64,000 nt of DNA from an uncultured Nitrososphaeraceae archaeon (GTDB lineage Archaea > Thermoproteota > Nitrososphaeria > Nitrososphaerales > Nitrososphaeraceae). The notes beneath the pieces were generated by a model. It was not told the DNA's origin. It did not search any database and saw nothing but the letters and a program-made list of their open reading frames with translations. Every line of letters starts with the position of its first letter. Position 1 is the first letter of the stretch. Where the stretch lies: the NCBI GenBank assembly GCA_963825865.1, contig CAWGVG010000006.1, positions 1-64,000 on the forward strand, read 5' to 3'. The translations under genes were made by a program, and so were the position numbers. Below are positions 28,959 through 64,000 of the stretch, piece after piece.

Positions 28959-28960
28959 TA

Positions 28961-41983: not shown

Positions 41984-42517
41984 ACCTATATAATTTGTTG
42001 AAGAACGAGCTTGCTTCCAACAAATAATTAGCCACCTCTTATATCAGAGATAATGTGGACTGCTAGCCAGGTTGTTAGCAACTGATAAACAATCAAGGAT
42101 GTAAAAATTGAAGAATGCTTAGGTTATGCACAATATATTCAAAAATTTCCAATTATCAATACCTTTTTCTATTTGATCATTTATAATTCACAAATTGGCT
42201 GTTCCACGGAGTAATTTGACAACCCGAACAACGCCTAGTGTATGTAATCATAAGTGCTAATGGCTTGGCTGATGCATTAACAAATCCTGCTACTGTAACA
42301 TTATCACCTGGTGTAGCTTAGTCCTGATAGGTTAACGTAATTATATTGTTGTCATCTCCTAACTTACTTTTTTTTGAAGGTAATGATATAATCCAAGTCT
42401 TGAACCAACCTTCAGATCATCATTTGTCACAATATATTGTTACTACAAATCAGAACGATCGATAAAGCTATTAACTTATCGATAAGAATGAGCAACTATT
42501 TAATACTGTTAAATAAC

Positions 42518-43621
42518 TTATTTGTAACCTGGCAGTAGCTGTTCTTCAACCTTTGAAATAATTTTATTTTCTTCTAATTTACCGTTTATTGCTTTAATAT
42601 CATTATCATCTATCGCTTTAATATTATCACGATCATATTCTTTCCTGAATTTCTCTTCTACAATTTTGTTAGCTTCAGGATCTATAATTATGAGCCTATG
42701 TTTTCCTCTTCTCATAGCTTCAAGAAATATTTTTCGTATAAACAAATCATTAAAGGAATAACCTATAACGATCCAATTCTGTGTGTTAGCTAGATCTTCC
42801 TTGAATGTTTTTAAAAAATCAAACCAAGGATGCAGATATAGATCCTTTTGATTAATAGGATAGAGCATCATTTCGCCTGTAACTATTTTTCCACCAATAC
42901 TGATCCTATTAGTATCTGATTCAACTATATTTCCATCGACCAATCCATACCATCTAATCGAACCGTGCAAGTGGACCAATCGCAGATTTGGCGATTGGAT
43001 TCTTTTAATATCTACAAATCTTATATTATTTTCTTCCCTTAACAGGTTATTGATTGGAGCAATTCCTTCCCAACAAAGTTCTTGTACTCTATCATAATTC
43101 GTTGTATATATATGCCAATTTTCGAAATAATATTTTTTCCCATCTACTTCTCTCGGCGTACAAGCCACTTTGCAAGCTATCATATTAAAAAAAGGCCAGA
43201 AGACTTCCTTGATATGAGCATCTTCATTTTCATTTACACTACATTTTTCTCTGATAAAATCTCTAAACTTAGTTAGCAAATTATCTGCAATAATTCTTGT
43301 TTTGTCGTCAGCTATAGATTCATCTTGTATTTTAGTAAGCTTATTAGTAGAAAGGATATAGACAGAAGTAAAACCAAGTTGTGAATATGTGATGCTTTTA
43401 TGTAGATCTTTTATTATGCTGAAAACAGATTCCAAGTCGGAGTATCTATAGACAGATAATAAACTGTTCTTGATAGACTGATAAAGATCATACATTTCCT
43501 TTGAATTTGTTTCTGATCCTTCTTTGAGCTTTTTTTCGAAACAAGTAACAAGCCCCTTCATTGTAGGAATGCCAAATGCAGATGAAGCTCCAGAACCAAG
43601 AAAAATCAAGCTATTTGCCAA
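42518..43621 (-). CDS. SIR2-like domain protein (SIR2_2 type, candidate NADase defence effector)
   Basis: FLGSGASSAFGIPT, IYTTNYD, LVHLHGS and IVIGYSFND motifs. No Zn-binding Cys pairs of deacylase sirtuins. Confidence 0.88.
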   Translation of the reverse strand: MANSLIFLGSGASSAFGIPTMKGLVTCFEKKLKEGSETNSKEMYDLYQSIKNSLLSVYRYSDLESVFSIIKDLHKSITYSQLGFTSVYILSTNKLTKIQDESIADDKTRIIADNLLTKFRDFIREKCSVNENEDAHIKEVFWPFFNMIACKVACTPREVDGKKYYFENWHIYTTNYDRVQELCWEGIAPINNLLREENNIRFVDIKRIQSPNLRLVHLHGSIRWYGLVDGNIVESDTNRISIGGKIVTGEMMLYPINQKDLYLHPWFDFLKTFKEDLANTQNWIVIGYSFNDLFIRKIFLEAMRRGKHRLIIIDPEANKIVEEKFRKEYDRDNIKAIDDNDIKAINGKLEENKIISKVEEQLLPGYK

Positions 43622-43988
43622 TTTCTACAATTGCATAATAAGCATGTTAATATAAATATTCTCGCAATATTCTTATGAATACACTATTATTTGTTAAATA
43701 AAAATAATATTGTGAAAGTTTTATACTTGTAATGTGCAATAAGTTATACTTACATAAGGTGCTGACGATATTGTAAGATAGTCACGCTCTATGAAGCAGT
43801 TTATCTTAAGATTTTACATAAGGAATTGCTAACATTGTAATATCATGTATCTTGGATATACAACAAAATTGTATTAGTTTACATAAGAATGGGATAAACA
43901 GATAGATAGTTGGTGGCAATAATATTGCCGCATTTGATTTATTTGCAAAAGATAGAAGATAGTCATATATTGAAAAAATTGTTACTGA

Positions 43989-44387
43989 CTATACAATATT
44001 AGCAGTAGTAGGCAATGGCAATTGTTTTCCAATATACTTTTTCCTTAATTTCTTAGAATTGCAATCCCAGATATATGCATAATAATATTTGTGTGTATTA
44101 TGTCTGCAATCTTTACAACACTTTACCTTTTCATATCTTATTGTGCAATTCTGCGGTAAATTCAGTTTCTCTTTGACCTTTTCTTCCTGTTCATATATTC
44201 TTTCTAATTCAAAATACTCTGAAGATAGGTAACTCGCTGATTCAAGTTTGTTTCTGTATTCCTTATCACTATAAAATTTTTCGAGGTTATCTGAATCGTG
44301 TAATAACTTCTTTAGCATATATCTTGGATCTGATAGCCCTGCTCTCTCTTGCAATTTTGCTAGACGTGTATTAAAATCCTTGTACAT
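43989..44387 (-). CDS. Putative nucleic-acid-binding protein, DUF6788-like C-terminus
   Basis: IRYEKVKCCKDC...H.YYYAYIW....KLRKKYIGK pattern. Confidence 0.65.
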   Translation of the reverse strand: MYKDFNTRLAKLQERAGLSDPRYMLKKLLHDSDNLEKFYSDKEYRNKLESASYLSSEYFELERIYEQEEKVKEKLNLPQNCTIRYEKVKCCKDCRHNTHKYYYAYIWDCNSKKLRKKYIGKQLPLPTTANIV

Positions 44388-44588
44388 TTCTATTGTTGCA
44401 GTTATTGTATGTACCTACTTACACACTGATAAATTTATTGCAGTAATATAATTAGTTTGAAATTCTTGTCGACAGGAGTTAGATATATGCGTTGAGAGCA
44501 TATATATTATAACCTAATAAATAAATGGCGTTCTGAAGGAATAATGGGATGAAGTTTAAAAAATAAGAGTGGGATCGGTAGGCTATGG

Positions 44589-44800
44589 TTACCTTTCTGT
44601 GTTTGTAATAGTACATGTTAGGTGTTGGCCTGCAGCTATGGTATCTTCACAATCACTACTGAAGGAAACATCAAAAAATGGTGGCTCATTAAATCTCTCT
44701 TCAAATGAGAAGTCATCCCCTGGCTGCAGTGTAAAAAGGACACCATTTCCAACAGCAGACTGACATGTGAAAGTTTGAGGGTCTTGGGAGCGGACAAGTA
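44589..44800 (-). pseudogene. C-terminal fragment of a surface-protein beta-sandwich domain
   Basis: TLQPG....ER...SFSSDCEDTIAAGQHLTCTITNT with no credible N-terminus. Confidence 0.5.
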
Positions 44801-44835
44801 AAGATATTTGACAGCCATTTACGACGAGAGAGCAA

Positions 44836-45388
44836 CTAACTAACAAAAGTATAGCTACCGTCACTTTTGTATAGTAGGTTAACCTTCATATTGTGCTCAT
44901 TATATGATGAAAAGACTCGCCAATTAGGTGTGTAATTTTTATCTTTGAGTATTGGAAAACGTTCTTCATTATCATAGTAATCTAATTCTTCTTTGGTCCA
45001 ATTTATCCAATATACAGGCGCTGTAGCATTACTTGGGTGTTTTTGCAAGTATTCAATATCTTTTCTTTCAAGTGCTTCATCCCACTTGCGGTCGTATTCT
45101 TCAACCCGTGCACAACGCATATCTTGAAACTTTTCTTCTAGTTCAAAATCTCTTAACTCGATATTTCCTAATCCACTAATTACAGGACTTGACCAAGCGT
45201 TATATCTCCGTTCATCTGGAATAAACCAGACTATTTCCTTCGTTTTCCTTGATAACGGCGTTAATCATATCCCAGTTGCTAGGACCAGCTTTAGAATAGT
45301 CGTCCCATTTAGATACAGAAGGAGAAGACCCACTTAATAGATTCTCAAGTCTTTTTGAAAGATTGTCTAGGAGTTTATCTGTCTTCAT
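44836..45388 (-). pseudogene. Frameshifted paralog of 30556..31143
   Basis: ATG 45388 gives MKTDKLLDNLSKRLENLLSGSSPSVSKWD and continues into ORF 44836..45120. Confidence 0.6.
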
Positions 45389-45391
45389 GGT

Positions 45392-46909
45392 CTATCGAGA
45401 TATTTGATTTGTTAACTGCTGATGTGACTGTCTTTGTTGCTGCAACTGCATCTGATTTTCGACCTCTGTTAGTTTCTCTTCTAAACTTTGCACATACATA
45501 ATTGACGGACCTTCTGATAATAGTTTGAACTGTGCTTCATTGCATTCTTTAGCCAATTTGAGCGCCGCTAATCTTTGGAAATAGCTTACTTGCTGTGCTC
45601 GTCGTCGGTAGACTCATAAATATTCCAACACTCCTTTAACACTTCTCTTATGCCGTCAATACAACTCTTATACATGAAAGGAAGCGTTTCTTTAGCCAGA
45701 TCATTTAAAAAATTCTGAGATTGTGATGTTAAATGCTGAATATCTCGGCTTATAGTCGCTGGTGTAGTGTTTAACTCTTTCGCAATTTCATAACCTTTCA
45801 TTCCTCTAGTTAAAAGAGTCCATATCTTTTGCCTTCGATCTTGGATTACTAACTGTTGTATTACAAACATAGGTAACAATATAGCTTACAGACATAGGTA
45901 ACACTTCTGCTAGGAAGTGGAAATCTCTATAGAAATTAGAACAAAATTCAATCTCATTCATGAACATGAATGGACTGGTAATAGTATTAGCGATATTTGC
46001 AATAAATACGAAATATCTAGGAAGACATATTACAAGTGGAAAAATAGATACATAGAGCACGGAATAGACGGGTTGAAAGACCTATCTAGAATGCCTCATA
46101 GCATCAAAACCAAAGTATCTAAAGAAATAGAAGAAACAATACTTGATTTAAGATTAAAGACCTTTGGTTATAAGTAGAATCAGGTTCAGATTAAAAAGAC
46201 TTGGAGTATCATTGAGCAGTAGAACCATATACAAGACATTGAAAAAACATACTCTCAACGTTCTAAACTGTAAGGTAAAGAATAATAGAAAGTATAAGCG
46301 ATTTGCAATGAAACATCCAAATGACATGCTTCAAATGGATATACTTGGACCATTCTACTTACACTGTTCATAGCACAAGAAATTACATGATAAGTTGTAT
46401 AGATGACTGTTCAAGAAAAGTTGCTAGCAAGTGGTCTGAAAGAAAGAGGAGCATTGATGTTTTGAATGTACTAGAGGAGTGGATTATGGATAACGGAAAG
46501 CCCAGGAAAGTTATGCATGACAACGGTAAGCAGTTTACATCTAAACTATTCAAACACTTTCTATATAAGAATAACATAAAGGATAAACCAATTCCAAATT
46601 CATATCCACAGTTACAAGGAAAGATAGAAGCATATAACAAGATTGTAAAGAATGAGTTCTTGACAGTTGAAGAAATAACAAGTATTGATGATGGAAAACT
46701 AAGGTATGATATGTTTGTCAAAGCATATAATGAAACTAGGGAACATGGTGGAATAAATGGTCTTACTCCTTCTGAAAGGTTTGTAAAAAGGTTAATTAAA
46801 TCTAAGACATATACAAAAAGGAAGCAAGAAAGTGTAACCTATGTAGGTAATCAAAATTGTTACCCATCTGTGTAAGTACAACAACTAACTTGTTATTATT
46901 TGCGCCCAT
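45392..46909 (-). pseudogene. Terminase-small-subunit-like HTH gene, copy 2, interrupted by IS481
   Basis: Start MGANNNK at 46909. The remainder (LVIQDRRQKIW...ELNTTPATISRDIQ) lies on the other side of the IS. Confidence 0.7.
45854..46883 (+). mobile_element. IS481-family insertion sequence, copy 3; transposase frameshifted
   Basis: Ends TGTTGTA...AAGTACAACA. TSD ACTAAC at 45848..45853 and 46884..46889. Nearly identical to copy 2. Confidence 0.93.
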
Positions 46910-47348
46910 TTAGATATTACAGACATTACGTATATTCACTCACAGACTGATAAATTTATTGCAATTCTTAACACCCAATTCTTGCGCTATCCTCAGATTC
47001 AGTCATTGATTGAGATAGTAAAGCATGGGACTTTGACTTGCGCTCTTTATGTCATGGTGATTTTTATATCCTCGACAGGCTGAAGTACACCGGTTCTATA
47101 GCCGCTTTAGGAAATCGTTATCTTATATCTCACAAGCGTTTGCATACAGACTGAATACTGGAACATGCCAAGATCTGATAATCATATAAGATCACTACTC
47201 CAATATATTATCATGGTGAAGGAAATGGAACTATATCAATTATTGGAGACAGCAACGAAACTGGTAATGTCACCGAATTCGGAGTTGCAAACTTCACAAG
47301 GAAGAAACGAATAAGTTTGGCATATCTTTAGTAGTAATACACTGGAGA

Positions 47349-48074
47349 CTATGGGTATAGTATCCGTAACAATCTTTTATCTTCTTTTGAAAGTTTACTA
47401 TTCCTACCTCCTATTTCCCTATGGTTAAGTGTATATTCTCCAGGAATTGGAAAAAGCATTACAGATTCAGGATCAAATTCATACTTGTTTGTAATTGTTC
47501 TACTATATCTTTCAAATATCTTTCGCTCTACCTCTTGCCTACTCCAATTATATGGAGGACCCATGAAATACTTGTAAACTGCATCTTTATCCCAAGGAAT
47601 ATCTGCAGCAGGATTCTGATATTCGTGAATAAGACCTATAGCATGGCCAAAAATATGTAAGACAGTTTTTGAATACTCTTCTGCTGGTGTCTCGGGGGCG
47701 AGCCAACCAAAATTTATCGTTGGTTCATTTTGAGGTATGTCAAGAGCATCTTTACCAATGTAAGACCAAGAACCTTTATCGCCATTCCACCCAAAACCAA
47801 TGCGAATCTCTGAATGTTTTTCATCATAATGAAATTTAAACTTTAGATTAGCATATCTTACCAATTCGTCTGCTATTTCCTGTACCTTTTTTTGTACCAG
47901 GACATCTCCATTCAAAAAACGTATATTTAGAACCTGGCCGCTTTTCCACCATCTTCCTGTAATGACGGCTATGGGAAAAGCAGCTGGTTCAGAGGAGCCA
48001 AATCTGGCTAAAGCATATGGAGAATGTCCTAGTATATCTTTATCAACACAAATCCTAAACACATTCCCTGTCAT
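47349..48074 (-). CDS. Metzincin (M12/astacin-like) protein lacking the catalytic Glu
   Basis: EIRIGF...GSWSYIG, H-I-F-G-H-A-I-G-L-I-H and the Met-turn SVMLF. Confidence 0.85.
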   Translation of the reverse strand: MTGNVFRICVDKDILGHSPYALARFGSSEPAAFPIAVITGRWWKSGQVLNIRFLNGDVLVQKKVQEIADELVRYANLKFKFHYDEKHSEIRIGFGWNGDKGSWSYIGKDALDIPQNEPTINFGWLAPETPAEEYSKTVLHIFGHAIGLIHEYQNPAADIPWDKDAVYKYFMGPPYNWSRQEVERKIFERYSRTITNKYEFDPESVMLFPIPGEYTLNHREIGGRNSKLSKEDKRLLRILYP

Positions 48075-48114
48075 TACTTTAATTTTTCTTTTGCACCATT
48101 ATTATGTATTATCT

Positions 48115-51409: not shown

Positions 51410-52440
51410 TCTATGTCGTCTCCTCCTCCTACTACTTCTACTGCCTTCTTCCGTGCCTTGATAAATTCTGTCAACGCTTCTTTGGCTGACTTTTTCCTAT
51501 CCTCTGGAGCAGTGAATGAACGATGTCTATCATCGGTGCTAAATACATAACCTGCCGCTCGAAATGTCTGTATACCTTCAGCCATCTTCTTTGCAGCCTC
51601 TATGATAACAGATGAAAAAGGTTGTGTGTCAATGCGTGATTTGTCATGTCCGTGGTAATCAATCCTTGGAGATACTAGGTTTGCAACTATAATACATGGC
51701 AGTTTTGTTTTTGCATCCTGATATGCATAGAATCTAAATCCGTAAGCCTGTAGGATATCTACGATGCTGTTGGAGTGAAGACCGTAATCACCATGACTCT
51801 TTTTGGTATCTTGCCATTGATAATCACCGTCAAATTGATTTCCCCTTGGAGAGAATGAATAATTGACACTACCATGGAATTTGGTTCCTATGTCTCTATG
51901 AAGTGCAATGGTGTCGTCATTTAATGGAATGGCTATAATCTCAAAGACAAATGGATACTGCAACAACATGCCGGTGCCTTTCTTATAGGGATAAGTTGTA
52001 CTACCATCGTGACTCCAAACTTTCTTTAAGTCCTTGTCGTTATAGCATCCATGAATTTCTTTGTAGACTGCATTCTTAGTATCCAGAATAATAATACCAT
52101 TTTGAAGATAAAGCTGTTCTATTCTCTTGACTAACGCATACTTTCTTTGTTCAGATTTAATGTTAGCATATGGCAGAGATATCTTCTTCGGTGCGTCTAA
52201 AACATTTTTTAATCCATAATAGAGTGCTTCTATTTTCTTATCCTTATCTTGATCTAAGATTAATTCGGCAACAGATATTTGATTATCAGGACCTTTCTTC
52301 ATGCTACTTCCTTCTCTGAATGTCCGTAACACATCGTAGACTAAGGTTGATTCTTTATCGTGTACACTTGTAATAGCGCTAACGAATTCTTCAGGTTTGT
52401 AGGAATGTATACTTGCTAATTTTGCAATTGACAGTATCAT
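51406..52440 (-). CDS. Type IIB topoisomerase B-subunit-like transducer region (GHKL ATPase part missing)
   Basis: PFVFEIIA, VNYSFSP and IIVANLVSPRIDY..DKSRID resemble the Topo VI-B transducer. No GHKL motifs are visible. Confidence 0.6.
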   Translation of the reverse strand: MILSIAKLASIHSYKPEEFVSAITSVHDKESTLVYDVLRTFREGSSMKKGPDNQISVAELILDQDKDKKIEALYYGLKNVLDAPKKISLPYANIKSEQRKYALVKRIEQLYLQNGIIILDTKNAVYKEIHGCYNDKDLKKVWSHDGSTTYPYKKGTGMLLQYPFVFEIIAIPLNDDTIALHRDIGTKFHGSVNYSFSPRGNQFDGDYQWQDTKKSHGDYGLHSNSIVDILQAYGFRFYAYQDAKTKLPCIIVANLVSPRIDYHGHDKSRIDTQPFSSVIIEAAKKMAEGIQTFRAAGYVFSTDDRHRSFTAPEDRKKSAKEALTEFIKARKKAVEVVGGGDDIE

Positions 52441-52955
52441 TTGTTATAAGGATTCTTCACAATTGGACATGTTGTCCGATTACATACATACTTTATAATC
52501 CACGTTTATCTCTGCATTATAGTGTGCTAGGGTATTGGGTGGTTTGCATTTAGCCAAATTGGCCATTTTGGCCGATTCAGTAGTTCTTGGTTTGAAAATA
52601 TAACTTTACCAAAATTAGGAACATTATGTGGGAAACATAAAAACAAATAAAGTTTTACTTTTAAAAACGGGTAAGAGAGAGACCTCGCTAATCTATCAAC
52701 GGATCAATATCATACTTGGTCTTTAGATCTGCACCTTTTCTAGTTATATGCATCGCACAGTAACCTTTCTCTATCCACTTTAGAATACCTGTAGCAACCT
52801 TTTCTTCCTGTTATCATAGTGCATCTATGAGAATCCGAGTCTGAGATGAGTCCTATTTAATTAAATAGTTTTTCAATGCGAGAATGTCATAACATCAGAT
52901 TGTATATACTTTTGATTATGATCAGGATTTTGACAAACTAAGCAATCAAGAACGA

Positions 52956-53159
52956 ATGAAAATAGCTATTACATGGGTCAGAGCTTATAGATACTATAAT
53001 TGTGAGCCTACTATTAATAATACTAAAGATATAGCAAGCATGTGGGCTCAAAGCATGTTAATGAATGATATGCGAATAAAGGGATTTTCAGATGAGGAAA
53101 TAAAATATGCAATTGAGCGTGTTTATAATCGCAAGAGAGGTAAAAAATACAGAAACTAA
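52956..53159 (+). CDS. Hypothetical protein
   Basis: 67-aa ORF with plausible composition. Confidence 0.45.
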   Translation: MKIAITWVRAYRYYNCEPTINNTKDIASMWAQSMLMNDMRIKGFSDEEIKYAIERVYNRKRGKKYRN

Positions 53160-53420
53160 TTTGAGTAATTGCTTATTTATTCTTCCGATCAGAATAATTT
53201 TAAGATCTCTGACTTATGCTTATTGGAAAGAAAGACCCTGAAAGCAAAAAGATCTGAGAGATAAGGTAAAAGATGACGCTATAGCACATTTATCAGATCA
53301 ACTTTTAGCTCTGTCTACAAGGTTACAAGAACTTGAAAGAAAGGCAGGCAGCTAATACAATAACAATAAAAATGACAACAAAAGAAAAGTTACCTGATTA
53401 TATTGAGCGAAATTACTGCT

Positions 53421-54815
53421 TTATCTAAGGTCTTTCGCAGATGCTTTGTCTTTTGATTTTCGAAGTAAATTGGGGTCTATCATCGATATCTCTCTTAATG
53501 CCTCGTTAATATACTCCCGAACGTTAGATGGTTCAGAAGCTATGGTGAATAGATTATCATTTTGAATTTCATTGTATACTTGTTTGCTGATATTGTCTAT
53601 CTTGTTGGTCACGATGTCTTGCGCCTTCGCATGACCTAAGGAATTTAAAATATCGTAGTCTTTTTGGGGTGATTTTGCAATGATCCTTCGTAGGGAAGAA
53701 TCTGTTGCTATGTAAAGCCCTGCCGAGTCCAAACCAAATATCAAAGAGTATGAGCCTATTATCAAAAAACTCATTGATAAAACACCCCATGGAGGATAGG
53801 GAGTCATTATTATTAGCGAAGAAGCATTTGCGCCAAACAGAAGAATTAAACCTATCCCAGCCATCACTATAGATTTCTTTAGTTGAATATGCGCAATGTT
53901 TCTAGAAAGTACGGCAAATGCAATACCAAACATTATCCCTCCTGCGGTTCTAACTGTGTTTAAGAAAAAGTTGTAGATGTAGGCATACATCGGATTGTCC
54001 TCAACTCCTAACACTCCAAGTAGATCTAGATGTTCTAGAAATGGTATTGTGTATAGGCTTGCAAAGTATACAAGGGGAATGCTTACTATGGTCCAATATT
54101 TTATCCGCCTAGACTTTGAAGCATAATGATATGTCAAAAATACTGTAGCGATCCACAAACTTACAAATGATATGATCCCTATCAATTGGTATGCAGAAAA
54201 TAGATCAGGCGATATTGTTGGAGAGTACGAATTCCATGGACTATATTCAGATGTTATGTAATCTGGTTTTCCTTGAAGGAAGTTGTCAACGTATATGAAG
54301 GTGATAATGCCACTCAATGATAGAACTGCAATAGATATAGAGTAAGCCAGTACAACTTTACTAGGTGAGATCCTGTATGTACGTACTAATCTTGACGAAA
54401 GAATTGCCAATAACACACTGGAGGTAATTAGATTTATCCCTACTACTGTTTCTAACAGATCGACGCTATATTTTGAAGTGAAAATAACCTGGAACAGAAT
54501 TATGACCAGAATGCCAGACGCAGAATATTGGAGTAAGTTCGAGATTACAAGAACACTCTTTCCAAGCCTAGATTTAGATCTTTCTACCTTTATCGATTCC
54601 TTTGTCTTTTTGATCAACATGAATTGTATCATGATGGAAATTAGAACCATTAAACCGAAGACAAATAGGTCAGCCTGTGGAAATATACTGCCAAGAGATA
54701 TCGTAAATGTATTACCAAAGGTTTTATCTAATACCTGAAGGATAACAGCGATAATTGCTACGATTACAATTAAGAAACTATTACGTATGCTACGAGCATG
54801 AAACGGACGTTTCAT
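53421..54815 (-). CDS. Multi-pass membrane protein with soluble C-terminal tail
   Basis: About 10 hydrophobic segments in an intact 464-aa frame. Confidence 0.85.
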   Translation of the reverse strand: MKRPFHARSIRNSFLIVIVAIIAVILQVLDKTFGNTFTISLGSIFPQADLFVFGLMVLISIMIQFMLIKKTKESIKVERSKSRLGKSVLVISNLLQYSASGILVIILFQVIFTSKYSVDLLETVVGINLITSSVLLAILSSRLVRTYRISPSKVVLAYSISIAVLSLSGIITFIYVDNFLQGKPDYITSEYSPWNSYSPTISPDLFSAYQLIGIISFVSLWIATVFLTYHYASKSRRIKYWTIVSIPLVYFASLYTIPFLEHLDLLGVLGVEDNPMYAYIYNFFLNTVRTAGGIMFGIAFAVLSRNIAHIQLKKSIVMAGIGLILLFGANASSLIIMTPYPPWGVLSMSFLIIGSYSLIFGLDSAGLYIATDSSLRRIIAKSPQKDYDILNSLGHAKAQDIVTNKIDNISKQVYNEIQNDNLFTIASEPSNVREYINEALREISMIDPNLLRKSKDKASAKDLR

Positions 54816-55282
54816 TTCACCTGACCCTCGATAATAGATCTCTATGGGAAAACCCCATTTGCTAGTGACGAATGTATTAAGGGTGATATATCATTATCGG
54901 GTTTATAAAAACCTCTTCAATATCATAAGTCAGTTTATGCAGTTGTAGGCTAGCATCCCAACGACAATTCCTTGTTATGTGTTCTAGTCAATCTAGACAT
55001 AAGATGTTCCTACAAAGAAACATTTAGTAACACTAATTACAATAAAGGATGAAATCATTTTTTCAATTAATTGCTAATTCCGTCTGTAAACTTCTGCAAT
55101 GCTGTAAAATGAGATATACGTTACGTTGCTACGGATAATAATAAGTAATGTACACCGATTAACCACCTGACAAACATTCTATAACTCTAACAGTATTAAT
55201 ACAATGGTTTCTATAGAGCAATCATATTCCTTGCCTTTAAATCCTTAATAATGGGCCGATTCATAATAGAAGGCCATATAAA

Positions 55283-55909
55283 TTGAAAGATGCCTTGATT
55301 TCGGTTTGTCTGATTATAATCATTTCATTAATAATTTTGACGCCATCTTACATTAATGCTTCTAGTAATGCTCCAGTGCTCTTCCGAAAGGGTTCTTCAC
55401 CTTATGGGACACCTTATTTAGAGTGGCTCAAGAACTGGTGGCAGTGGTGGATAAGCATCCCAAATAATGAGCATCCATTTCCAAACTATGATTCCAAGAC
55501 ATGCTCAGTTCATCAGCAAGGCCCAGTATGGTTTCTACCTGACGTTGAGCCACAAGGTCAACTAACACATGCCTCAGTGAAGTATTCATGTGAAATTCCA
55601 AAAGGTAAGGCAATATTCTTTCCTCTCTCACAGTCCTCCTGCTGGTTAGGTAACCCAGAATTTAAGAAATATAGTAACAAGTTGGCACCTAACCCTCAGG
55701 CCGATCAAGAGCTTAAAACATGCGCTGTTTCACCCCAGGATTTTAGTCATTCGGTCGTTCGTCTAGATGGAATAGATTTAGATCCAACTAAATTAGATAG
55801 GGTTACAACAAGTTTTTACAATGTAACAGTACCACCCAACGCTGTTAAAGATCTCTTTGACTTTGGACCTCCTGGCACATCTAGAGGAATAGCTGATGGA
55901 TATGTATGA
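55283..55909 (+). pseudogene. Secreted protein (WWQWWISIP/GPVWFL type), apparently 3'-truncated
   Basis: Signal peptide, then SPYG..Y.EW...WWQW, C...Q.GPVWFL and IPKGKAIFFP. Stops abruptly at ADGYV against a convergent ORF. Confidence 0.7.
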
Positions 55910-56226: not shown

Positions 56227-56589
56227 CTATCTGACTGGTTTGACAAGATACCTGGTGTCCTTATTGCTGCCAATTCGAGAGATTTCTAAGATAGTCTTGC
56301 AGTTCTTTAACTCATCATATATTTTCGATACATGCATTCTACTTACTTCGAATATCTTTTCTTTTCTCTGTTCTGTGTCATTGATGTCTATGACTACGAA
56401 CTGTACTTTCTTTACAGGCTTGCCGTTGAAATCAACTTTGTCTACTACTTTTGTCCTATTTGCAAGAAATTCAAAAACTTTTGTTTCTCCATCTTTGATG
56501 CTGACATAATTTGATTCAATAAAAGATTCGATCTCTTTGTTTTGATAGTATGTTGTTTGTGTTTGTTGTCGATTATTTGATGTTTCCAA
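56227..56589 (-). CDS. Putative phage-type OB-fold single-stranded DNA-binding protein
   Basis: YVSIKDGETKVFEF...EISRIGSNKDTRYLVKP resembles gp32-like SSBs. Confidence 0.55.
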   Translation of the reverse strand: METSNNRQQTQTTYYQNKEIESFIESNYVSIKDGETKVFEFLANRTKVVDKVDFNGKPVKKVQFVVIDINDTEQRKEKIFEVSRMHVSKIYDELKNCKTILEISRIGSNKDTRYLVKPVR

Positions 56590-56963: not shown

Positions 56964-57070
56964 CTACCTCTCCAGAGGATTATTGAATGCGTCTTCCGTT
57001 GGATGGTGTAGTTTGCCTGGATGTTCTATGTCTATGTGTTTTATGCGTTCTAGATCAGTCGAAAATATTT
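56964..57070 (-). pseudogene. Relic 3' end of a second primase/helicase gene
   Basis: IFSTDLERIKHIDIEHPGKLHHPTEDAFNNPLER* matches IKRVKHREESHPDSPNYPNPEDFDNRLER* at 57958. Confidence 0.7.
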
Positions 57071-57096
57071 GTATGCGTTGATAAGAGATTCAATAA

Positions 57097-57795
57097 TCAA
57101 GCAAATTGTATTGAATTTATCACATGTAGTGCTATTGGTAGATATGTCGGAGCATCTAATTGACCCACGTTAAATGCGAACAACATGACCCTTCCATCAT
57201 TAGATGGCATTGAGATATAATAGTCTCTATTATAGAAATTTTTACCACCAAAATAAAGACTGGTAAAACCAGTATATTCCAACTGCCAAGCTGAATTACC
57301 TGATATTGTAATTGCCTTATCTCGGAGATAGGAATCATACTCTATAGTCGCAGTTTGTGGCGTCTGCTGTCGCATGTTATTTATCCTTTCAATAACTAAA
57401 TCATGTGGTGTTTTGATTTTGACTTGCATATCATTTGTATCCAAGAACTTTTCTGGTTCCCTAACGTGTATAGAAAAAGAAGCCTGCTTATCAGGAGAGC
57501 TTATGACTACACTATTGAGTGTTTCATACTCATGCACAGACCAATCACTGGGATATTGTAGTGTATATCCAGATCTATCGCTCTGATATGTTACAAAATC
57601 ACTATCTGCTGTGTTATTTGTAGTAGTTTCCGATGCTGTGTTTTCACTAGGATTATTATTAATATTATCAGAACCTGGAATACCAGGAATTTGTGCATAG
57701 ATATACTGCCGTGGTGCTTGTATTATAATAGCAAACAAAAACAAGAATGTTATTACCATGACGCTAGCAACAAAAATCGTTAATCTGTTAAGCAT
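57097..57795 (-). CDS. Secreted PsbP-like protein
   Basis: Signal peptide, FVTY....GYTLQYPSDW and C-terminal VINSIQF. Confidence 0.75.
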   Translation of the reverse strand: MLNRLTIFVASVMVITFLFLFAIIIQAPRQYIYAQIPGIPGSDNINNNPSENTASETTTNNTADSDFVTYQSDRSGYTLQYPSDWSVHEYETLNSVVISSPDKQASFSIHVREPEKFLDTNDMQVKIKTPHDLVIERINNMRQQTPQTATIEYDSYLRDKAITISGNSAWQLEYTGFTSLYFGGKNFYNRDYYISMPSNDGRVMLFAFNVGQLDAPTYLPIALHVINSIQFA

Positions 57796-57957
57796 TCACT
57801 ATTACGGTCATTGTGAATTAAATGTATAAGCGATTTCACAAATTTTTCTGAATTCCCTTTATAGCAAAACGATAAGCTATAAAATCTGTGCAAGAGTTAC
57901 CAAAGATTTTTCATCAATTGGACATAATGTCCAATTACATATTTTATAATTAGTCTT

Positions 57958-60875
57958 CTACCTCTCCAAACGGTTATCAAAGTCCTCTGGATTTGGGTAA
58001 TTGGGTGAATCTGGATGAGACTCTTCTCTATGCTTTACCCGTTTGATATTACAGTCGTTTCCGTCGTTGCCCTCGAAACAATCATCACAATAAAAACACT
58101 TGAATATTTTTCTATAACTGTCCTCATCATTGTTATTTGCTAACACACCATGGTCTTGGGAGACTTGGAATATATCGTCCGCATCGTCCGTATCGTTCGA
58201 ATCCTTGGTATCGCTAGAGATTTGAGCGTAGTTTTCAGCATTATCGTCGGACGGTATTTCATTATTATCGAACGGTATATCGTCCGCATTTTTTATAATA
58301 TCGTCCGAAATATAGCTAGATATATCGCTAGAGATTTGAGCTTGATTCTGGCCTGCAGCCGATCCGTTGGACGGTTCGGACGGTTCGGACGATATTCTCC
58401 AGATCTTCACGACCTTAGACCTTTTTGTCTGATCAGTGAAACCTTTCTCTATTATGATGCCAACTTCTCTAAGGTTTGCCTTTACTTCATTGATCCTCCT
58501 GCTCAGGCTATTAGGCGCCTTTGGCCATGACCTATTTTGGAAGGTTGTATTTATGTGCAGATTGCTGGCAACTGTATTTAGTTCTTCAAGCAATTGTGTC
58601 ATAGTTCCTTTCCATAATTTGCCTTCCCTATCATCTACGAATTGCTTGATGACATTACCTACTACATGCGCATTTATCGTCTCTTCAGATTGAAGGTTTA
58701 TGTTATCGTCATATGCCTTGGTAAAAGCGCCTTCTTTATTGTCCATGGCAGCGAGATATGATTTCACCAATTTCAGCAAAGTCTGCAAATCTTGGATACG
58801 ACTTTAATTCAATTCCTCCATTACTTATAATCCTCAATACTTTGGACAGGATATCAAAGATATACCCTAGCAATTTTGGTCTTATTTCCTCAAATTCTTG
58901 CCATATAACCTGCAATTTCCGTCTTTTTTCCTTGGGTATTGGTTCAAGTTCTAGGATAAGACCCCAATCGATAAGATCTGACTCTTCAGCACCTAGGTTT
59001 ATCCCATTAATCCCTATACACCGCTTGAAACTATAGATCACGTCCTCATCGTCTGTGAACAATTCCCTTTTAGAAAATGCATCCCCAGTTACACCCCTAC
59101 ACAAAGCATCTGATACCTTTTTAGGGATATCAGACACATTCTCATAATAGCAGACATAGTTATGCATCATTTGCTGTGCCAACTGTGCAATATCTGTAGG
59201 AAGTGATAGCGTCATTGCAGGGCTTGGGTCCACTAGAATTCTTAACAACTGTTGAAATGTGGTCTTTGCTGCTTTTGGCTCTCCATGCAACATTAATGCG
59301 GGTTTTATGATATCTGGGTAGAACATTGCAATGATGTAGCACTTTAACAGTAGTTTTTTATCCTCACCTGAGACATTGATCAATTGCATGAACTGGTCAA
59401 AGATATCTCTGGGATATTCTCTTACGGGGTAAACTTGTGGTTTTTGGTCTGCTATACCTTCTAAAGATTATAGGTGCTTGGCCTATGGTCCAACCATTTT
59501 CTTCTGAAGAAGTAGTTATCTTTACAGATTGACAATCCTTATTTGCCAAATCGTAATAGATCGTGAATGGACCCTCTTTGATCTTGGAAACTCTCAACTC
59601 AAGTTCCTTTCTAACACCTTCAAAGTCCGCCCTTGCCTGCAATATGTTGAGGATACTCGCTATATGCTCGCCGTTTAACATGGCGCTTTTGCCAGATGCT
59701 TCATAGAATTTATGGCAAAGCCAATGCTTGAACCTAGCGCCTTTGAGTTGAAGGGTTTCTAAATGGCCATCTATATTTACAGTTGCGTAAGGGTTCCCAA
59801 ATTGATCTTGAAAGAATTCAGGGCAATGGCCTTCAACTAGCTCTATGGCCTTTTGAGTCCAGGCTTATCTGGTTTATTCTTAGCCAGACCCTGAGAGGTT
59901 TGAATAATATCGTCCGAATCACCCATATCGTCCGACGACGGCGACATTGCAGCCTTGTTAGTTCCATAGATAAACATGGTTGCATCACGCCATTGTCTAT
60001 CAAATTCACTATCGTCTAGCGGGGATACAATGCTTACCGTTCCAATCTCTAGCAAACCCCTTTATTGTCTCTAAATCTAGAATGTTTTGGTTGCGTTTGA
60101 TAAGTGATTCCATAGTGCGCAGTAGTGCCTCGTGACGGTTATGACCTTCATATACCTTGAAATCTGACTTGAACAGATCTTCAATTGGTATCTGATTTGG
60201 ATTTTTTGATGATCTTCCATTTCCATTTTCTTGTAGATATGAAATACCATACCTCTTGCAAACATTATCTATATGCTTGCCTCAAAATCGTCTGCAATAA
60301 CTGGCTCTTGTGTTCCTATTATCTGGAATTGTTGTCCATTCTTATGCATAGAAGGAGAGCAGAATAATATTCCATGTTCGCCTAAGCCTTTAACTTCGAT
60401 TGCGGGGATCTCATGCTCTCTATTTTATCCGTTAAACCTGCTGTTGGTTTTATTTTTATCATTGCTCTTCTTTGTAAATGGCTTGTATGAATAGACATAG
60501 ACGTGCGCTCTATTTGTGTCATCTGGATGCTGCCTCAACTAAAGTCCATTGGCTTAATTCTTTAATTGAAATGGCTTTACCATCATATTTGCAAACCTCT
60601 TCTATAGCCTTTGAGTTATCTAGATCAATTCCATTAAGGTTTAACCCTGGTTTTTGATTATTATGCCATACCTTACCTAAAATAACAGCCATACCGTCTG
60701 AAAATTTGTTTTCAGATTTCCATTGGTTATGAAGTTCTTCAGGAATTGGTTTATCTTGCCATTGGTCCCAAGGAACTACTGGTTTTTTATTTTTAGTATC
60801 TGCAGGTATTACATTTACGCCTATATCATAACGCCAAAAGTCAGTCCATTCGTTGATTGTTGCAATACTAGCCAG
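57958..60875 (-). pseudogene. Primase-polymerase (Prim-Pol) fused to helicase-like ATPase; multiple frameshifts
   Basis: Hand translation from ~60866 gives INEWTDFWRYDIGVNVIPADTKNKKP...GMAVILG...GIDLD, then AHVYVY and EVKG......CSPSMHKNG. Later fragments have LMLHGEPKAAKT, YENVS, DALCRGVTG, KRELFTD, PRFADF and WPKAPNSLSRRI. Confidence 0.85.
58173..58394. repeat. Cluster of TATCGTCCG-type iteron-like repeats inside the rep gene
   Basis: TATCGTCCG at 58173, 58278 and 58299, with variants at 58182, 58191 and 58242 and an inverted copy at 58386. TATCGCTAGAGATTTGAGC at 58209 and 58323. Confidence 0.75.
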
Positions 60876-61065
60876 TTTTAAAAGTCACCTTTTTTTGAAG
60901 AAAAAGTAGCATCATTTTTATTTCAAGTATTTCTGCACGAGTGTGAGCCTGTGCCTTCTGAAAGCTATCAATTCTTCCCAAGACATCGTCAAGCTTTTTA
61001 TCTCTATTTGGTGTGGAAAAGAAAGACTTATCCTTTGGATCGTTGTAGTTATCTTGAGAGGTCAT
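60868..61065 (-). CDS. Small hypothetical protein coupled to rep
   Basis: 65-aa ORF whose stop overlaps the rep start region. Confidence 0.6.
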   Translation of the reverse strand: MTSQDNYNDPKDKSFFSTPNRDKKLDDVLGRIDSFQKAQAHTRAEILEIKMMLLFLQKKVTFKTG

Positions 61066-61082
61066 TTAAGCAATCTCATCTC

Positions 61083-61391
61083 CTATGACATTGCCTGATG
61101 ACTGCTCTGGTCTGTTGGTTGAGTTGGGGTTGGCTGGTAAACCTTGTCCTCCTCAACCTTTTTTGTAATTGTATGACAACTATGTCGACAAATGAGCCTT
61201 AATCTATTTCCAGTAATTACGTCACTATAATTACCTGTGCATTGATTACAAGGTGCTAAACAAACTTCAATTTCACGTATTATTATATTTTCAGATTTGT
61301 TTTTTATAAGGTCATTAGTAGCAGTATTATCTACAGAACTTGATTTATAGGTGCCTAATACTATTGTCGAGGGTTTGGTTTGGTGACTCAT
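61083..61391 (-). CDS. Small Zn-finger protein
   Basis: C..PC.QC...C.H.CH pattern. ATGA overlap with the upstream gene. Confidence 0.65.
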   Translation of the reverse strand: MSHQTKPSTIVLGTYKSSSVDNTATNDLIKNKSENIIIREIEVCLAPCNQCTGNYSDVITGNRLRLICRHSCHTITKKVEEDKVYQPTPTQPTDQSSHQAMS

Positions 61392-61555
61392 TGTTCTGTG
61401 ATGGCACCCCTGATACCGACACTATTGTTATTTTTATTACCGATCTTAATCAGTTCATTAATCAGTTGGTCGTATGTTTGACTTTTATGTCCTATTTTCC
61501 TCAGGAGCTCCCTAGTTGGTTTCTTAACAATTATTGTTGTGTAAACTTCAGGCAT
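61388..61555 (-). CDS. Ribbon-helix-helix (CopG-like) regulator
   Basis: MPEVYTTIIVKKPTRELLRKIGHKSQTYDQLINELI. Confidence 0.75.
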   Translation of the reverse strand: MPEVYTTIIVKKPTRELLRKIGHKSQTYDQLINELIKIGNKNNNSVGIRGAITEQ

Positions 61556-61598
61556 ATTTGCAAATATATATAACACAGAGATACTGACATATAATACG

Positions 61599-61625
61599 CC
61601 TATACTCCTATACTAGACCTATACT
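61599..61625. promoter_or_regulatory. Three CCTATACT direct repeats in the divergent promoter
   Basis: CCTATACT at 61599, 61607 and 61618, immediately before ATG 61630. Confidence 0.55.
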
Positions 61626-61629
61626 ACGT

Positions 61630-62598
61630 ATGACAAAAGTAAGTAGCGAGACAGACGAGTTGAATCATTTACGAAAGGAAAATCAGGAGTTGAAGCACAA
61701 ATTGGCTGAACTACGAGGTGTAGCATCACTAGAAGAGACGAACATATCTCTAAGACAAATGTCAATATTGGATTACATAAAAAAGAATCCAGGAAAAAAT
61801 AAACAGAATGTAATTGAATGGGGAGAATCTCTGAAGATCCCTATAGGATCAAGAGTAACCATTATGAATGCGATATCTGATCTTGATAATTTAGGAATAA
61901 TAAAGGTTGAAAAAGACAAACCCAATAGCACAATACACAAATTATATGTTAATGAAGACAGTATTTTGGTTTTCTTAATTGAAGAACTTGATTCTTTTGA
62001 AAAAGACTTTTCTGTTTTAATATAAAAAGTAAAAGACAAAATAAAAGGAAGAGATTTTGGCGATATAACTTACTCTAAAAATGAAATAGCATTCTTTACT
62101 TATTTCTTTGTAGTTTATCAACAATTCATTGGAATGCTTGTATTACATGCCATATCTACATGGCCAGCCAAATTAAATAACGAAGATACACTCAAAAGAC
62201 TATATGCAATGCTATTCTCATGGCTGAGAAAAATCCAATTAAACCTGACAAATGTTTTTGATTTTAGATCATATTATCCATACACATATTATATCGATGT
62301 GCAGGCGACTATGGCTCAAGCTTGGTTTGTGTTACAACCTCAATATATGAAAGATTTACTTTGCATAGCAAAAGAATATGATGCAGTAAGTGAAATAGAA
62401 AATGTATTCGACGTGGTATGGAAAATAAGTAAACCATTTTTTAGATATTCTATGTGGGCTAATCCTCCGCAGTCTGGAAAACAAAACAAAGATGGCAGTA
62501 TGGCCTACAAAGATCGAAATAGCAAACAGCTTGCTGAACTAAATCCAGAAAACTGGAGAGAACCATTAATGAAATGGGAAGGTCAACAAGAACAATAA
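61630..62598 (+). pseudogene. Winged-helix protein with an in-frame premature stop at 62023..62025
   Basis: RQMSILDYIKKNPG...SRVTIMNAISDLDNLGII wHTH. ORF 62134..62598 is in the same frame and the gap is open apart from one TAA. Confidence 0.7.
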
Positions 62599-62643
62599 AT
62601 GCTCAACATTATTATAAATCAATATTAATCTTGTTTAGTTTAA

Positions 62644-63999
62644 TCACTTATCCGCTAGTTTTAAAAGACCAGAGGAGAACAAAGATTGCGCCATTGTATT
62701 GAACTGTTTATTATCTTGAGTATGACATAATCCTCCAATTAGTTTTTCTAACATGGACTGCATATTGTCGAATTGCTTTTGCATCATAGTTAATTGGTTT
62801 TCCTTCTGCTTCTGTGACTCTAATGCTTCTTGGTATCCTTCAAAGCTCATTATCATTTTACATTTGCTGCAGAACTTGCTATCTACAGTATTACCTTCAT
62901 TGCAGTTAGGGCACATTTTGGGATTTAGGGTATCAATTGGAACATTATTTTTATTCTTTGTGACAATGCCATATGCTTCAAGCAATGATTCAGAAGATTC
63001 ATTACCAAAATAGTGGATGTATTTTTGTACCATGTTGCTATTCATTGTCCAACCAGCATGTTGGTTCAATGTGTTGGATTTTAGCTTTGTAGATTTTTCA
63101 GTTAATGCTGAATGGCGCCTTATGTATGGGTTAAATGGTTTTGTGAGTAAGGTTTTGATTTTCTCTTTGTCTTCATTTGATACTGTTGCATCTTGTAATA
63201 ATTTAGGAAAAAATTCTTCTTTGTAGTCTTTGTAAATCTGCTCCAGACCACCAGTAGATAGTGGTTTACCTGTATTACTCCTACCTAGTCCTACAATAAG
63301 TGGAGATTTAAGGTTATTACGGCTTGGGTGATTTGATAGCCATTCTTTGATATAAGGTATTGATTGGATTAATGGTATATGTCTTGAACCAGTTTTACCG
63401 TTGACTAGTACCTCTGCATACTGATACTTACCATTGTCTACAGTTTTGAACACGATATCTTTTATTTTCAGGTTCAATATTTCATGGGGACGTGCAGACA
63501 AATCTCTAGCCATTGTATGATAGCACCGATCTCGTTTGTTTGTAACCCATTTTAAGAAAAGAACATCGTCTTCTTGCGTCCATAGATCAGATGGTTTGTA
63601 GCAACTTACCTCTTTTCTCTTTAGCTGGGGTACACCCATAATACATGCAGGTTTTCTCTCATTTTCAGATAGTTCATTTCTTCTTTTAGGAGTATCTACA
63701 TTAGGATAACAAAGCCATTTAAAAAATCTAAATAATATGATACGTTTTGTATTGTAACTCCCTATCCATTTATGCAATGGGTCATCATTTTCTGATTTTC
63801 TACAACTGTCTAAATATAACAAAACATCATCCCTTGCCATATCCTCAAATCGTTTTTCTATGCCAACAGACTTTGAGAGTTCTGACAGAAATTGAATTGT
63901 GTATTTTATGTAGCTGAGTCTAGGATTAACCTCTCTTTTCATCGCTATAATATATTCAGATATTGTCAGGGCGTTTTCTTTAGATAATCTACTCCTATC
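62644..63999 (-). CDS. Tyrosine recombinase/integrase with C-terminal Zn ribbon; 5' end lies outside the window
   Basis: ARPHE (R), GKTG (K), PYIRRHS (R), HAGW and QKYIH (Y), then CPNC...CSKC. The frame is open to the window edge. Confidence 0.92.
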   Translation of the reverse strand, partial: DRSRLSKENALTISEYIIAMKREVNPRLSYIKYTIQFLSELSKSVGIEKRFEDMARDDVLLYLDSCRKSENDDPLHKWIGSYNTKRIILFRFFKWLCYPNVDTPKRRNELSENERKPACIMGVPQLKRKEVSCYKPSDLWTQEDDVLFLKWVTNKRDRCYHTMARDLSARPHEILNLKIKDIVFKTVDNGKYQYAEVLVNGKTGSRHIPLIQSIPYIKEWLSNHPSRNNLKSPLIVGLGRSNTGKPLSTGGLEQIYKDYKEEFFPKLLQDATVSNEDKEKIKTLLTKPFNPYIRRHSALTEKSTKLKSNTLNQHAGWTMNSNMVQKYIHYFGNESSESLLEAYGIVTKNKNNVPIDTLNPKMCPNCNEGNTVDSKFCSKCKMIMSFEGYQEALESQKQKENQLTMMQKQFDNMQSMLEKLIGGLCHTQDNKQFNTMAQSLFSSGLLKLADK

Positions 64000-64000
64000 T

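Follow-up and report, generated by a model that had tools for sequence, protein, structure and literature searches.

The last third of the first 64,000 nucleotides of contig CAWGVG010000006.1 (C6, 89 kb; these 64,000 nucleotides are the window), from an uncultured, ammonia-oxidising soil archaeon of the Nitrososphaeraceae (assembly GCA_963825865.1; the names of its homologues agree with this family), holds a locus at 42.5-64.1 kb with a tyrosine integrase, a primase-polymerase/helicase, a type IIB topoisomerase-like gene pair, a helix-turn-helix (HTH) gene and a SIR2 gene. This locus is most likely a damaged, integrated plasmid-like element within a larger 44.6-kb segment, which is bracketed by IS630-family insertion sequences (IS) and was once, or still is, circular. 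With moderate confidence we place it, as a defective and mosaic copy, among the cryptic integrated elements (CIEs) of Thaumarchaeota. A first-pass annotation had read the locus as a satellite that hijacks the packaging of a helper virus, in the manner of the phage-inducible chromosomal islands (PICIs) of bacteria; on present evidence this claim does not hold. The analysis was extended to the full 89 kb of C6. The archaeon is the sole representative of its genus among the comparison genomes, whose contigs are written in the form G054:C1; contigs of the present assembly carry no genome prefix.

Most of the genes named in the first pass are real: the integrase, the divergent small genes, the primase-polymerase/helicase, the topoisomerase-like pair, the HTH gene and the SIR2 gene (Table 1). 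The integrase on the minus strand, int498, matches Phage_integrase (E 2e-4) and the phrog_1 integrase family (E 6.6e-8). Elsewhere in the genome, 38 open reading frames (ORFs) on many contigs match it in Blastp searches, many of them partially, and dozens of relics from the same element families are scattered through this genome. The putative regulator next to the integrase is homologous to a 263-aa gene beside a second integrase on C6, residues 8-203 of which match 61894-62463 (tblastn); its 131-aa ORF also matches 68520-68236 at 36% (tblastn), and a relative occupies the same position in G001 and G063. The divergent arrangement of regulator and neighbouring small ORF is as first described, but the label 'winged HTH' found no support, neither from a significant family match nor from a search of PDB sequences with the 131-aa ORF (best SlyA, E 0.71). 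The divergent Cys-rich 102-aa ORF has no match in Pfam, PHROGs, PADLOC or NCBIfam, and a weak paralogue of it adjoins the primase-helicase gene on C7.

The replication gene can be aligned over residues ~28-933 of intact relatives of 916-944 aa (tblastn), some of which carry the Pfam Prim-Pol domain (PF09250). This end-to-end alignment bears out its identification as a primase-polymerase fused to a superfamily-3 helicase, a family present in 40 of the 81 family genomes. The 'iteron-like repeats' reported within it come down to four short tandem repeats of at most 2.6 copies, which on translation fall inside the coding, acidic and Ser-rich low-complexity C-terminal linker. Several relatives of the helicase part (P0173, P0180, P0184, P0188, P0190, P0194, P0200, P0202 and P0223; 1240-1470 aa) contain a family B DNA polymerase domain (PF00136), which replaces the primase-polymerase domain; in P0223 both are present.

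The frame changes in the replication gene have to be seen against the quality of the assembly (4.98 Mb in 62 contigs, ~35% G+C, 82% complete), in which ORFs of at least 150 aa cover only 43% of the genome. The essential rpoB gene (PF00562, domain-6 region) is broken into three frames within 1.1 kb (C44:25097-26220). Because an essential gene is broken in the same way, the ±1 frame breaks in the primase-helicase gene are probably technical indel errors, and the idea that it is a decayed pseudogene was dropped. Short contigs from public runs (depth 2-5, each weak evidence singly) show zero substitutions relative to the window and yet differ from it by gaps: 60236-60429 has three, 59965-60147 two and 45105-45370 one. 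A relative at 92% identity lacks one base at 59446, the exact site of a frame break. A lesion was taken as real only where it was an insertion, a truncation or a missing domain. Since frame breaks in this assembly are mostly technical, 'pseudogene' calls in it are not to be trusted.

The order of the core genes, integrase, regulator, primase-helicase, HTH and 195-aa partner, recurs in other genera. The complete genome G054 has host genes, an integrase, a 357-aa gene, a 151-aa gene, a primase-helicase gene (870 aa), an HTH gene and a 195-aa homologue, followed by a UPF0175 antitoxin-like gene and a PLD-domain gene as cargo. In G054:C1, G065:C18, G089:C10, G055:C68, G009:C102 and G012:C20, the primase-helicase gene is followed at a distance of 0.3-3.6 kb by the HTH gene. 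G001 and G043 combine an integrase with a primase-helicase gene, with a relative of the 131-aa regulator ORF detected between them in G001 only. The proposed synteny is thus conserved in part; a hidden Markov model (HMM) search found no HTH gene in G001 or G043. Within the present genome, 8 of the 17 primase-helicase loci have an HTH gene on the same strand within 25 kb downstream; random placement in 2000 trials averaged 1.09 such loci and never exceeded 6, under a uniform null that ignores the clustering of mobile DNA in islands.

The topoisomerase-like pair links the locus to plasmids. The A-like protein (355 aa) matches DUF2399 (E 8.5e-7), the 'DNA topoisomerase' family phrog_6247 (E 3.4e-5) and JetD (E 4e-5); a search of PDB sequences returned nothing significant. 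Its motifs are R59-A-A-M-Y63, E90, D139-Y-D-A-S-G144 and R215-V-E-I-D-A-V. In an alignment of 25 sequences E90 and D139 are invariant and Y63 and G144 nearly so, while R59 and D141 are each shared by a majority (consensus residues). We found 183 relatives, mostly of 330-380 aa and as a rule stand-alone, and proteins of this type occur in 23 of the 81 genomes (the unpublished G046 included). The B-like partner aligns to residues 102-377 of a 526-aa Topo VIII-like ORF. A Bergerat-fold (GHKL) ATPase part was not found upstream of it in 52441-53420, and in G060, G085 and G051 the 344-aa homologue is preceded, in the same orientation, by a match to the ATPase N-terminus; the B-like gene in the window is therefore truncated at its 5' end. 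The initial call of a type IIB topoisomerase-like gene is accordingly right for the Toprim protein, with its tyrosine and Toprim motifs of Topo VIII type, and for the presence of a B-like partner, but the latter lacks its ATPase part. Judging from these relatives, the intact form would be a B-like gene of ~560 aa followed by the A-like gene. In the region upstream of the truncated gene (52403-53363), short segments are 82-95% identical to C21, C27, C13, C43, C48 and C29, and it looks like a recombination scar.

According to the available text of Takahashi et al. 2020 (PMC7671362), Topo VIII is found on free and integrated plasmids only, RxxMY is a Topo VIII variant of the tyrosine motif, and the discriminating boxes are RVELNAM for Topo VIII and xWELDAL for Mini-A. 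The pair described here resembles plasmid-borne Topo VIII (Gadelle et al. 2014, cited through PMC7671362) in being a type IIB topoisomerase homologue on mobile DNA and in its RxxMY tyrosine motif and its Toprim E and DxDxxG motifs. Its T2BI box, RVEIDA, is intermediate, with RVE as in Topo VIII and D-A as in Mini-A. The pair differs in that the window copy has lost the ATPase moiety. The same text describes seven split Topo VIII, each split inside the transducer, whereas in the relatives here the split falls between a B-like and an A-like gene, the arrangement of Topo VI; Thaumarchaeota appear there in the reference list only. Two-gene enzymes with an ATPase-bearing B-like protein and an A-like protein of ~350 aa are present in G060:C215, G085:C279, G051:C26 and G063:C2. 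The pair adjoins an int498-like integrase in G060:C215 and G051:C26 and a primase-helicase gene in G085:C279 and G078:C438. These linked Topo VIII-like genes favour a plasmid over a virus satellite.

In the satellite reading, the HTH protein would be a small terminase (TerS). The 97-aa ORF first called 'TerS-like' is a fragment of an HTH protein of ~148 aa, whose gene is broken at about codon 8 by an IS481-like element, so that the first ~8 codons are displaced to 46884-46996. The sequences on the two sides of the IS (46996-46884 and 45857-45465) align collinearly to 29979-30475, being 99% and 96% identical to it. At least 497 database proteins belong to this family, nearly all of them unnamed or named after IS30-type HTH. 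The protein gave no terminase match in PHROGs or Pfam, only generic HTH matches, and a profile search of PDB sequences gave nothing below E 0.1. The AlphaFold model (35 sequences; predicted local distance difference test, pLDDT, 85) is all helical, with an N-terminal HTH and long helices, and is devoid of a C-terminal barrel. A Foldseek comparison of the model with the PDB yielded no significant match, the best being MntR (E 0.16); the small terminases of G20c (4xvn_E, E 0.23) and P74-26 scored E 0.23-0.35 with a template-modelling score (TM) of 0.26-0.31. In a wide PDB search independent of Foldseek, the top matches were LuxR/GerE, DeoR and sigma-region-4 HTH domains (Z 8.1-7.3), and there was no terminase among the best 50 matches listed. 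Among viral structures (BFVD), the best match was a phage protein named 'HTH type 11' (E 8e-4, TM 0.45), and three entries named small terminase matched weakly (E 0.0095-0.088, TM 0.33-0.34). In the Foldseek comparison with the PDB and among the viral structures, no small-terminase match was significant or had a TM above 0.34. An alignment-based pattern scan of the 2.9 million contigs of IMG/VR likewise found no relative of the HTH family. On fold architecture a TerS role is conceivable, but it lacks positive support. The HTH family is present in 52 of the 81 family genomes in up to 29 copies each (a tally that includes the unpublished G046 and G088); the large-terminase family Terminase_6N is present in one (G051), which has no HTH match.

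The HTH gene has a regular partner. A 195-aa gene lies directly 3' of it at five of the six loci of the 195-aa family in this genome, and also in G054; in the element studied here this gene has been cut down to a remnant of 29 codons, with a 195-aa copy elsewhere in the window at 30556-31143. The family has 202 representatives at E <=0.001 and the motifs PPRF, ITQDELD and C..C.PEC..Y..GRIED. Its predicted structure is confident (pLDDT 82.5; predicted template-modelling score, pTM, 0.68) and has no fold match in the PDB (Foldseek best E 4.6, VIA best Z 6.2); a match to the HK97 small terminase (rank 49, Z 3.8) was dismissed as noise. A protein-atlas look-up gave no usable match.

The locus lies within a larger structure. 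The two IS630-family copies on C6 are 99.4% identical over 1170 bp and in direct orientation. In an uninterrupted paralogue, 72000-72414 runs directly into 28959-29300 (C2:46846-47238 and C2:47237-47580), and in another IS 27470-27797 is directly continued by 73577-74375 (C23:13441-13768 and C23:13767-14569). A TA is present at each IS630 joint. It follows from these contiguities that a Topo VIII-like gene was the original site of one IS630 and a second IS that of the other, and that they exchanged partners. The 44,617 bp (44.6 kb) between equivalent points of the two copies would form one circle, and contain both integrases, the 42.5-64.1 kb locus and the piece at 28959-31143. In the simplest history, recombination between a circular molecule of this size and an IS630 copy in the chromosome would have given a cointegrate. 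Alternatively, the assembler could have mispaired the IS630 copies, in which case the same segment would be a free circle. Segmental duplications of 87-98% identity (2289-3511 and 38863-40085; 360-965 and 31890-32536; 950-1625 and contig 86301-86975) tie the contig ends to the interior of the IS630-bracketed segment.

The IS630 bracket also explains the supposed second partial copy of the element at 28961..31143. This piece of DNA is real, but it is the tail of a neighbouring element, split off by IS630. The second element, which lies head to head with the 42.5-64.1 kb locus, comprises a 350-aa integrase (int350), the 263-aa regulator, a 442-aa protein, a Topo VIII-like gene, an HTH gene and a 195-aa gene. 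Its Topo VIII-like gene is made up of contig 69080-72414 and 28959-29712, with a match to the ATPase moiety at contig 70374-70766. The front half of this element is kept in G063:C2 (integrase 70.6% identical), where the topoisomerase-like pair adjoins the set of int350, 263-aa and 442-aa genes.

Extending the contig beyond position 64000 in search of attachment (att) repeats or a tRNA gene revealed neither. In exact-word and blastn-short comparisons, the DNA beside each integrase shared no direct repeat of more than 14 bp with the rest of the locus, and the same held for G001, G043 and G054; the searches yielded only 11-14-mers and one 17-nt match with a mismatch, which is chance level. There are no tRNA genes on the 89-kb contig. 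Between the two integrases, contig 64888-65022 encodes the last ~45 codons of a histidine-kinase gene (the end of HATPase_c), the remainder of which is not on the contig; the genome has more than 20 similar histidine-kinase 3' ends. We rejected this 3' end as the integration target, as it consists of the last ~45 codons only and other copies of the integrase are not consistently adjacent to such ends. Assemblies of the public runs (short contigs, depth ~2-5) contained no contig bridging a possible excision joint; there are 13 such runs, each containing at most 21% of the sampled words, and no RNA run is listed among them.

Families of capsid, portal, terminase and VirB4 proteins had no match among the scanned ORFs of the contig (Pfam, PHROGs), and a six-frame scan of the whole genome (82% complete) found no match to PF03237, PF05065, PF12846, PF03354 or PF04466 (by name, in no matching order, Terminase_6N, TerL_ATPase, Terminase_3, Phage_capsid and AAA_10). 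The reported absence of capsid, portal, large terminase and VirB4 genes from the window is thus confirmed, and no capsid or conjugation genes were recognised beside the locus. An alignment of the primase-helicase family matched seven IMG/VR contigs, in the helicase only and at a distance (27-39% identity).

Taken as a satellite, the locus would be excised when triggered by a helper head-tailed virus, be replicated by its own primase-helicase, and have its HTH protein act as a TerS that redirects the helper's large terminase. The recurrent order of integrase, divergent regulators, primase-replicase, small HTH protein and cargo agrees with this, as do the lack of recognised structural genes, the resemblance of a 120-aa protein to viral-hypothetical clusters, and the HTH model, whose N-terminal HTH and long helices match small terminases weakly (4xvn_E, BFVD). 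Against it stand the missing terminase family match of the HTH protein and its missing relatives in IMG/VR, an all-helical model in which the C-terminal barrel is absent, and structural matches to TerS that are all non-significant, at TM <=0.34, and lie amid generic regulators (MntR, LuxR, sigma region 4). The contrast between 52 genomes with the HTH family and a single one with Terminase_6N, itself devoid of the HTH, argues in the same direction. This genome (82% complete) has no match to the large-terminase (TerL) or HK97 capsid families; the HTH gene of this copy is interrupted by an IS; and the element carries Topo VIII-like genes, which elsewhere are confined to plasmids as far as the available part of PMC7671362 goes. 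We therefore rank the satellite as the least probable of the readings considered, with hardly any weight. A broader version, in which the core and its fold-orphan pair would define a widespread, undescribed Nitrososphaeraceae element family, with the HTH and 195-aa proteins as a new DNA-recognition module serving its spread and possibly its packaging into virions by helpers, is only marginally less improbable; if the packaging reading were true, these would be the first satellites in ammonia-oxidising archaea. The locus might also be the remnant of a provirus of an unfamiliar archaeal virus type, its capsid and packaging proteins hidden among the unmatched genes. A family match is missing for roughly one gene in two and the 195-aa protein combines a confident model with no PDB match, in keeping with such a remnant, but no further conserved gene block travels with the core (the neighbours differ in G054, G001 and G043), compact relatives leave little space for a virion module, relatives in IMG/VR amount to the seven distant helicase contigs and none for the HTH, and the Topo VIII-like link favours plasmids. 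We consider a provirus decidedly unlikely.

A chance pile, in which the 21 kb would be no functional element but an accumulation of pieces from many mobile elements without relation to one another, in an accessory island prone to recombination and scrambled in part by the assembler, is also unlikely, if less so. Dozens of stretches of 50-700 bp are common to many other contigs at 75-95% identity, IS of several families occur on the contig together with segmental duplications and host genes that are truncated, a histidine-kinase 3' remnant separates the integrases, and the assembly is rich in errors. Against this, integrase, regulator, primase-helicase, topoisomerase pair, HTH gene and 195-aa remnant follow one another in an order and on strands that match other genomes and contigs, which a random pile would not reproduce. 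The locus is a mosaic all the same and not one intact unit, as the first-pass annotation had suspected: it has an IS481-like insertion, truncated B-like and 195-aa genes, and probable patch or cargo genes. Several points weigh against our own preference for a plasmid-like element. Its ends are undefined in the absence of att repeats longer than 14 bp or a tRNA gene. No excision, replication or circular form was observed, the public runs having a depth of ~2-5 and short contigs. Between integrase and SIR2, about every second gene is without family match (Pfam, PHROGs, PADLOC, NCBIfam), and an unrecognised virion or transfer module is therefore possible. The indel-rich assembly makes the gene models uncertain. 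The HTH family is far commoner than the primase family and mostly on other contigs, and so is not specific to this element type; and the test of its linkage to primase-helicase genes used the uniform null mentioned above.

If the plasmid-like reading is correct, an intact relative might work as follows. The tyrosine integrase would insert and excise the DNA, and the regulator, which diverges from the replication genes, would set the switch. The primase-polymerase/helicase would start replication of the excised circle, and the two-subunit Topo VIII-like enzyme would handle its topology. The HTH protein and the 195-aa Cys-motif protein would form a conserved pair, most likely binding DNA for regulation or partition, and protection of the host may fall to variable cargo, of which SIR2 is an example. 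Autonomous function of the present copy is unlikely, because the B-like gene lacks its ATPase part, the HTH gene contains an IS481-like element and the 195-aa gene has been cut to 29 codons.

CIEs are defined in Krupovic et al. 2019 (PMC6563490) as integrase-bearing islands devoid of virus or conjugation hallmark genes; in the available part of that paper they range from 2.6 to 98 kb with a median of 17 kb, some encode a primase-polymerase fused to a superfamily-3 helicase, and they bring along defence genes and other cargo. The gene content of our locus bears out its suggested kinship to such elements: it combines an integrase with mobile-element genes and a replication protein of this fused type, carries cargo that includes a probable defence gene, and has no recognised virus or conjugation hallmarks. 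It differs in having a recurrent core with HTH/195-aa and Topo VIII-like pairs, whereas no signature genes are named for CIEs in the available part of PMC6563490. The core of integrase, regulator, primase-helicase, HTH and 195-aa genes is not described in the available parts of PMC6563490, PMC7671362 or 10.1101/2025.02.15.638363.

A different kind of mobile DNA, the PICIs and Staphylococcus aureus pathogenicity islands, has an integrase at the end, divergent regulators, a primase-replicase, a small DNA-binding protein, cargo and no structural genes. Our locus is similar in its integrase at one end, divergent regulators, own primase-replicase, small DNA-binding protein downstream and cargo, and structural genes were not recognised in it either. 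It is dissimilar in having no demonstrated terS, capsid-remodelling or helper-interference gene, no known helper and no att sites found, and in being, in this copy, a 21.6-kb, IS-bearing mosaic with a plasmid-type topoisomerase. Among archaeal elements, pSSVi is one that integrates. The archaeal satellites described before Zhou et al. 2025 (10.1101/2025.02.15.638363) are given in the available text of that work as pSSVi and pSSVx only; pSSVx and the haloarchaeal SRCE carry a morphogenesis gene of the helper virus, encoding an AAA+ ATPase and/or capsid protein. The Saccharolobus fusellovirus satellites pSSVx and pSSVi and the SRCE are, like our locus, archaeal and plasmid-derived, with replication proteins of primase-helicase type. 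On the same source they measure 2.7-9 kb, compared with 21.6 kb here, and the helper morphogenesis gene of pSSVx and SRCE has no recognised counterpart in our locus (Pfam, PHROGs).

To our knowledge, genetic tools are lacking for the ammonia-oxidising archaea of soils, and only a few of their plasmids or viruses are known. An integrating replicon that is both recurrent and compact, made up of integrase, regulator, primase-helicase, HTH and 195-aa genes could seed vector design, and would mark a main route of gene flow, including that of defence genes such as SIR2. Also of note are the recurrent HTH/195-aa pair itself, the Topo VIII-like enzyme that soil ammonia oxidisers encode in two genes, and the presumed IS-mediated cointegrate.

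Table 1. Features of the locus and of the neighbouring IS630-bracketed DNA, in contig order (C6 numbering)
Feature	Position	Strand	Remarks
IS630-family copy 1	27798..28958	+	Twin at contig 72415-73576
Tail of second element (earlier 'second partial copy')	28959..31143	+	Topo VIII-like 3' part, 99-aa ORF, HTH gene 30066-30531, 195-aa gene 30556-31143
Stand-alone SIR2_2 protein	42518..43621	-	SIR2_2 E 1.4e-10
Cys-rich 132-aa protein	43989..44387	-	Multi-copy, mobile-element-linked
Two small ORFs			Between 195-aa-gene remnant and Cys-rich 132-aa gene
Remnant of 195-aa partner gene	45302..45388	-	29 codons; residues 1-29 match at 62% identity (tblastn)
HTH gene, ~148-aa family	45395..45885	-	HMM match; HTH_11 E 5.8e-6 (ORF 45586-45879, 97 aa)
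IS481-like insertion sequence	45850..46887	+	rve and HTH_28 matches; 98.6% identical to 37823-38858
Four genes of 170, 171, 186 and 241 aa	47349..50345	-	Single-copy in genome, no paralogues
Type IIB topoisomerase A-like protein, 355 aa	50342..51409	-	Second half of 5Y-CAP, Toprim, T2BI-like box
Topoisomerase B-like remnant, 344 aa	51406..52440	-	Transducer region; GHKL ATPase part missing
Probable patch or cargo genes	53421..55909		ORFs: 464-aa membrane protein (-), 208-aa secreted protein (+)
120-aa protein	56227..56589	-	Earlier label 'SSB-like'
PsbP-like secreted protein	57097..57795	-	PsbP_2 E 9.3e-6
Primase-polymerase/superfamily-3 helicase replication gene	57961..60866	-	At least 4 frame changes
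Four short tandem repeats	58174..58391		9-21 bp, 1.9-2.6 copies (Tandem Repeats Finder)
Cys-rich 102-aa ORF	61083..61391	-	Divergent from regulator over 238-bp spacer 61392-61629
Putative regulator	61630..62598	+	Two ORFs, 61630-62025 (131 aa) and 62134-62598 (154 aa); convergent with integrase
Tyrosine integrase int498	62644..64140	-	498 aa; runs past window end; C-terminal zinc ribbon (DZR match)

The PsbP-like, 120-aa, 208-aa and 464-aa genes are read as probable patch or cargo genes. A paralogue of the PsbP-like gene (C27:163566-164342) adjoins the primase gene of C27, just downstream of it. The 120-aa protein is mobile-element-linked, its paralogues adjoining other primase or topoisomerase-like loci. 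Its nearest protein-atlas clusters are hypothetical proteins of tailed viruses (0.95-0.97). It gave no significant match in the PDB or Pfam, and the only lead towards the original label of single-stranded DNA-binding protein (SSB) is a weaker atlas match (0.88) to Phi29 SSB. The 464-aa and 208-aa proteins have no family match (Pfam, PHROGs) and paralogues scattered at non-element places, so that 53421..55909 is a probable patch or cargo region. Among the four single-copy genes, the 241-aa protein has a partial AbsR1-like match (NCBIfam NF050131, E 1.8e-32, 113 bits against a cutoff of 650). The 170-aa protein, labelled ribbon-helix-helix (RHH) in the first pass, had no significant family or PDB match, which gives the label no support.

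The SIR2 gene at the far end of the locus was correctly named, matching SIR2_2 and, in PADLOC, SIR2 (E 1e-20) and Aga_SIR2 (E 4e-19); its match to NF042942 (SIR2_antiphage, E 4.7e-8) is far below the cutoff. PADLOC recognised no partner gene (pAgo, HerA, TIR etc.) among 21 neighbouring proteins. From these matches, the gene is probably defence cargo. Paralogues of the adjacent Cys-rich 132-aa protein are found on C62, C45, C14, C19 and other contigs, the C45 copy lying 1.4 kb downstream of a topoisomerase-like pair.

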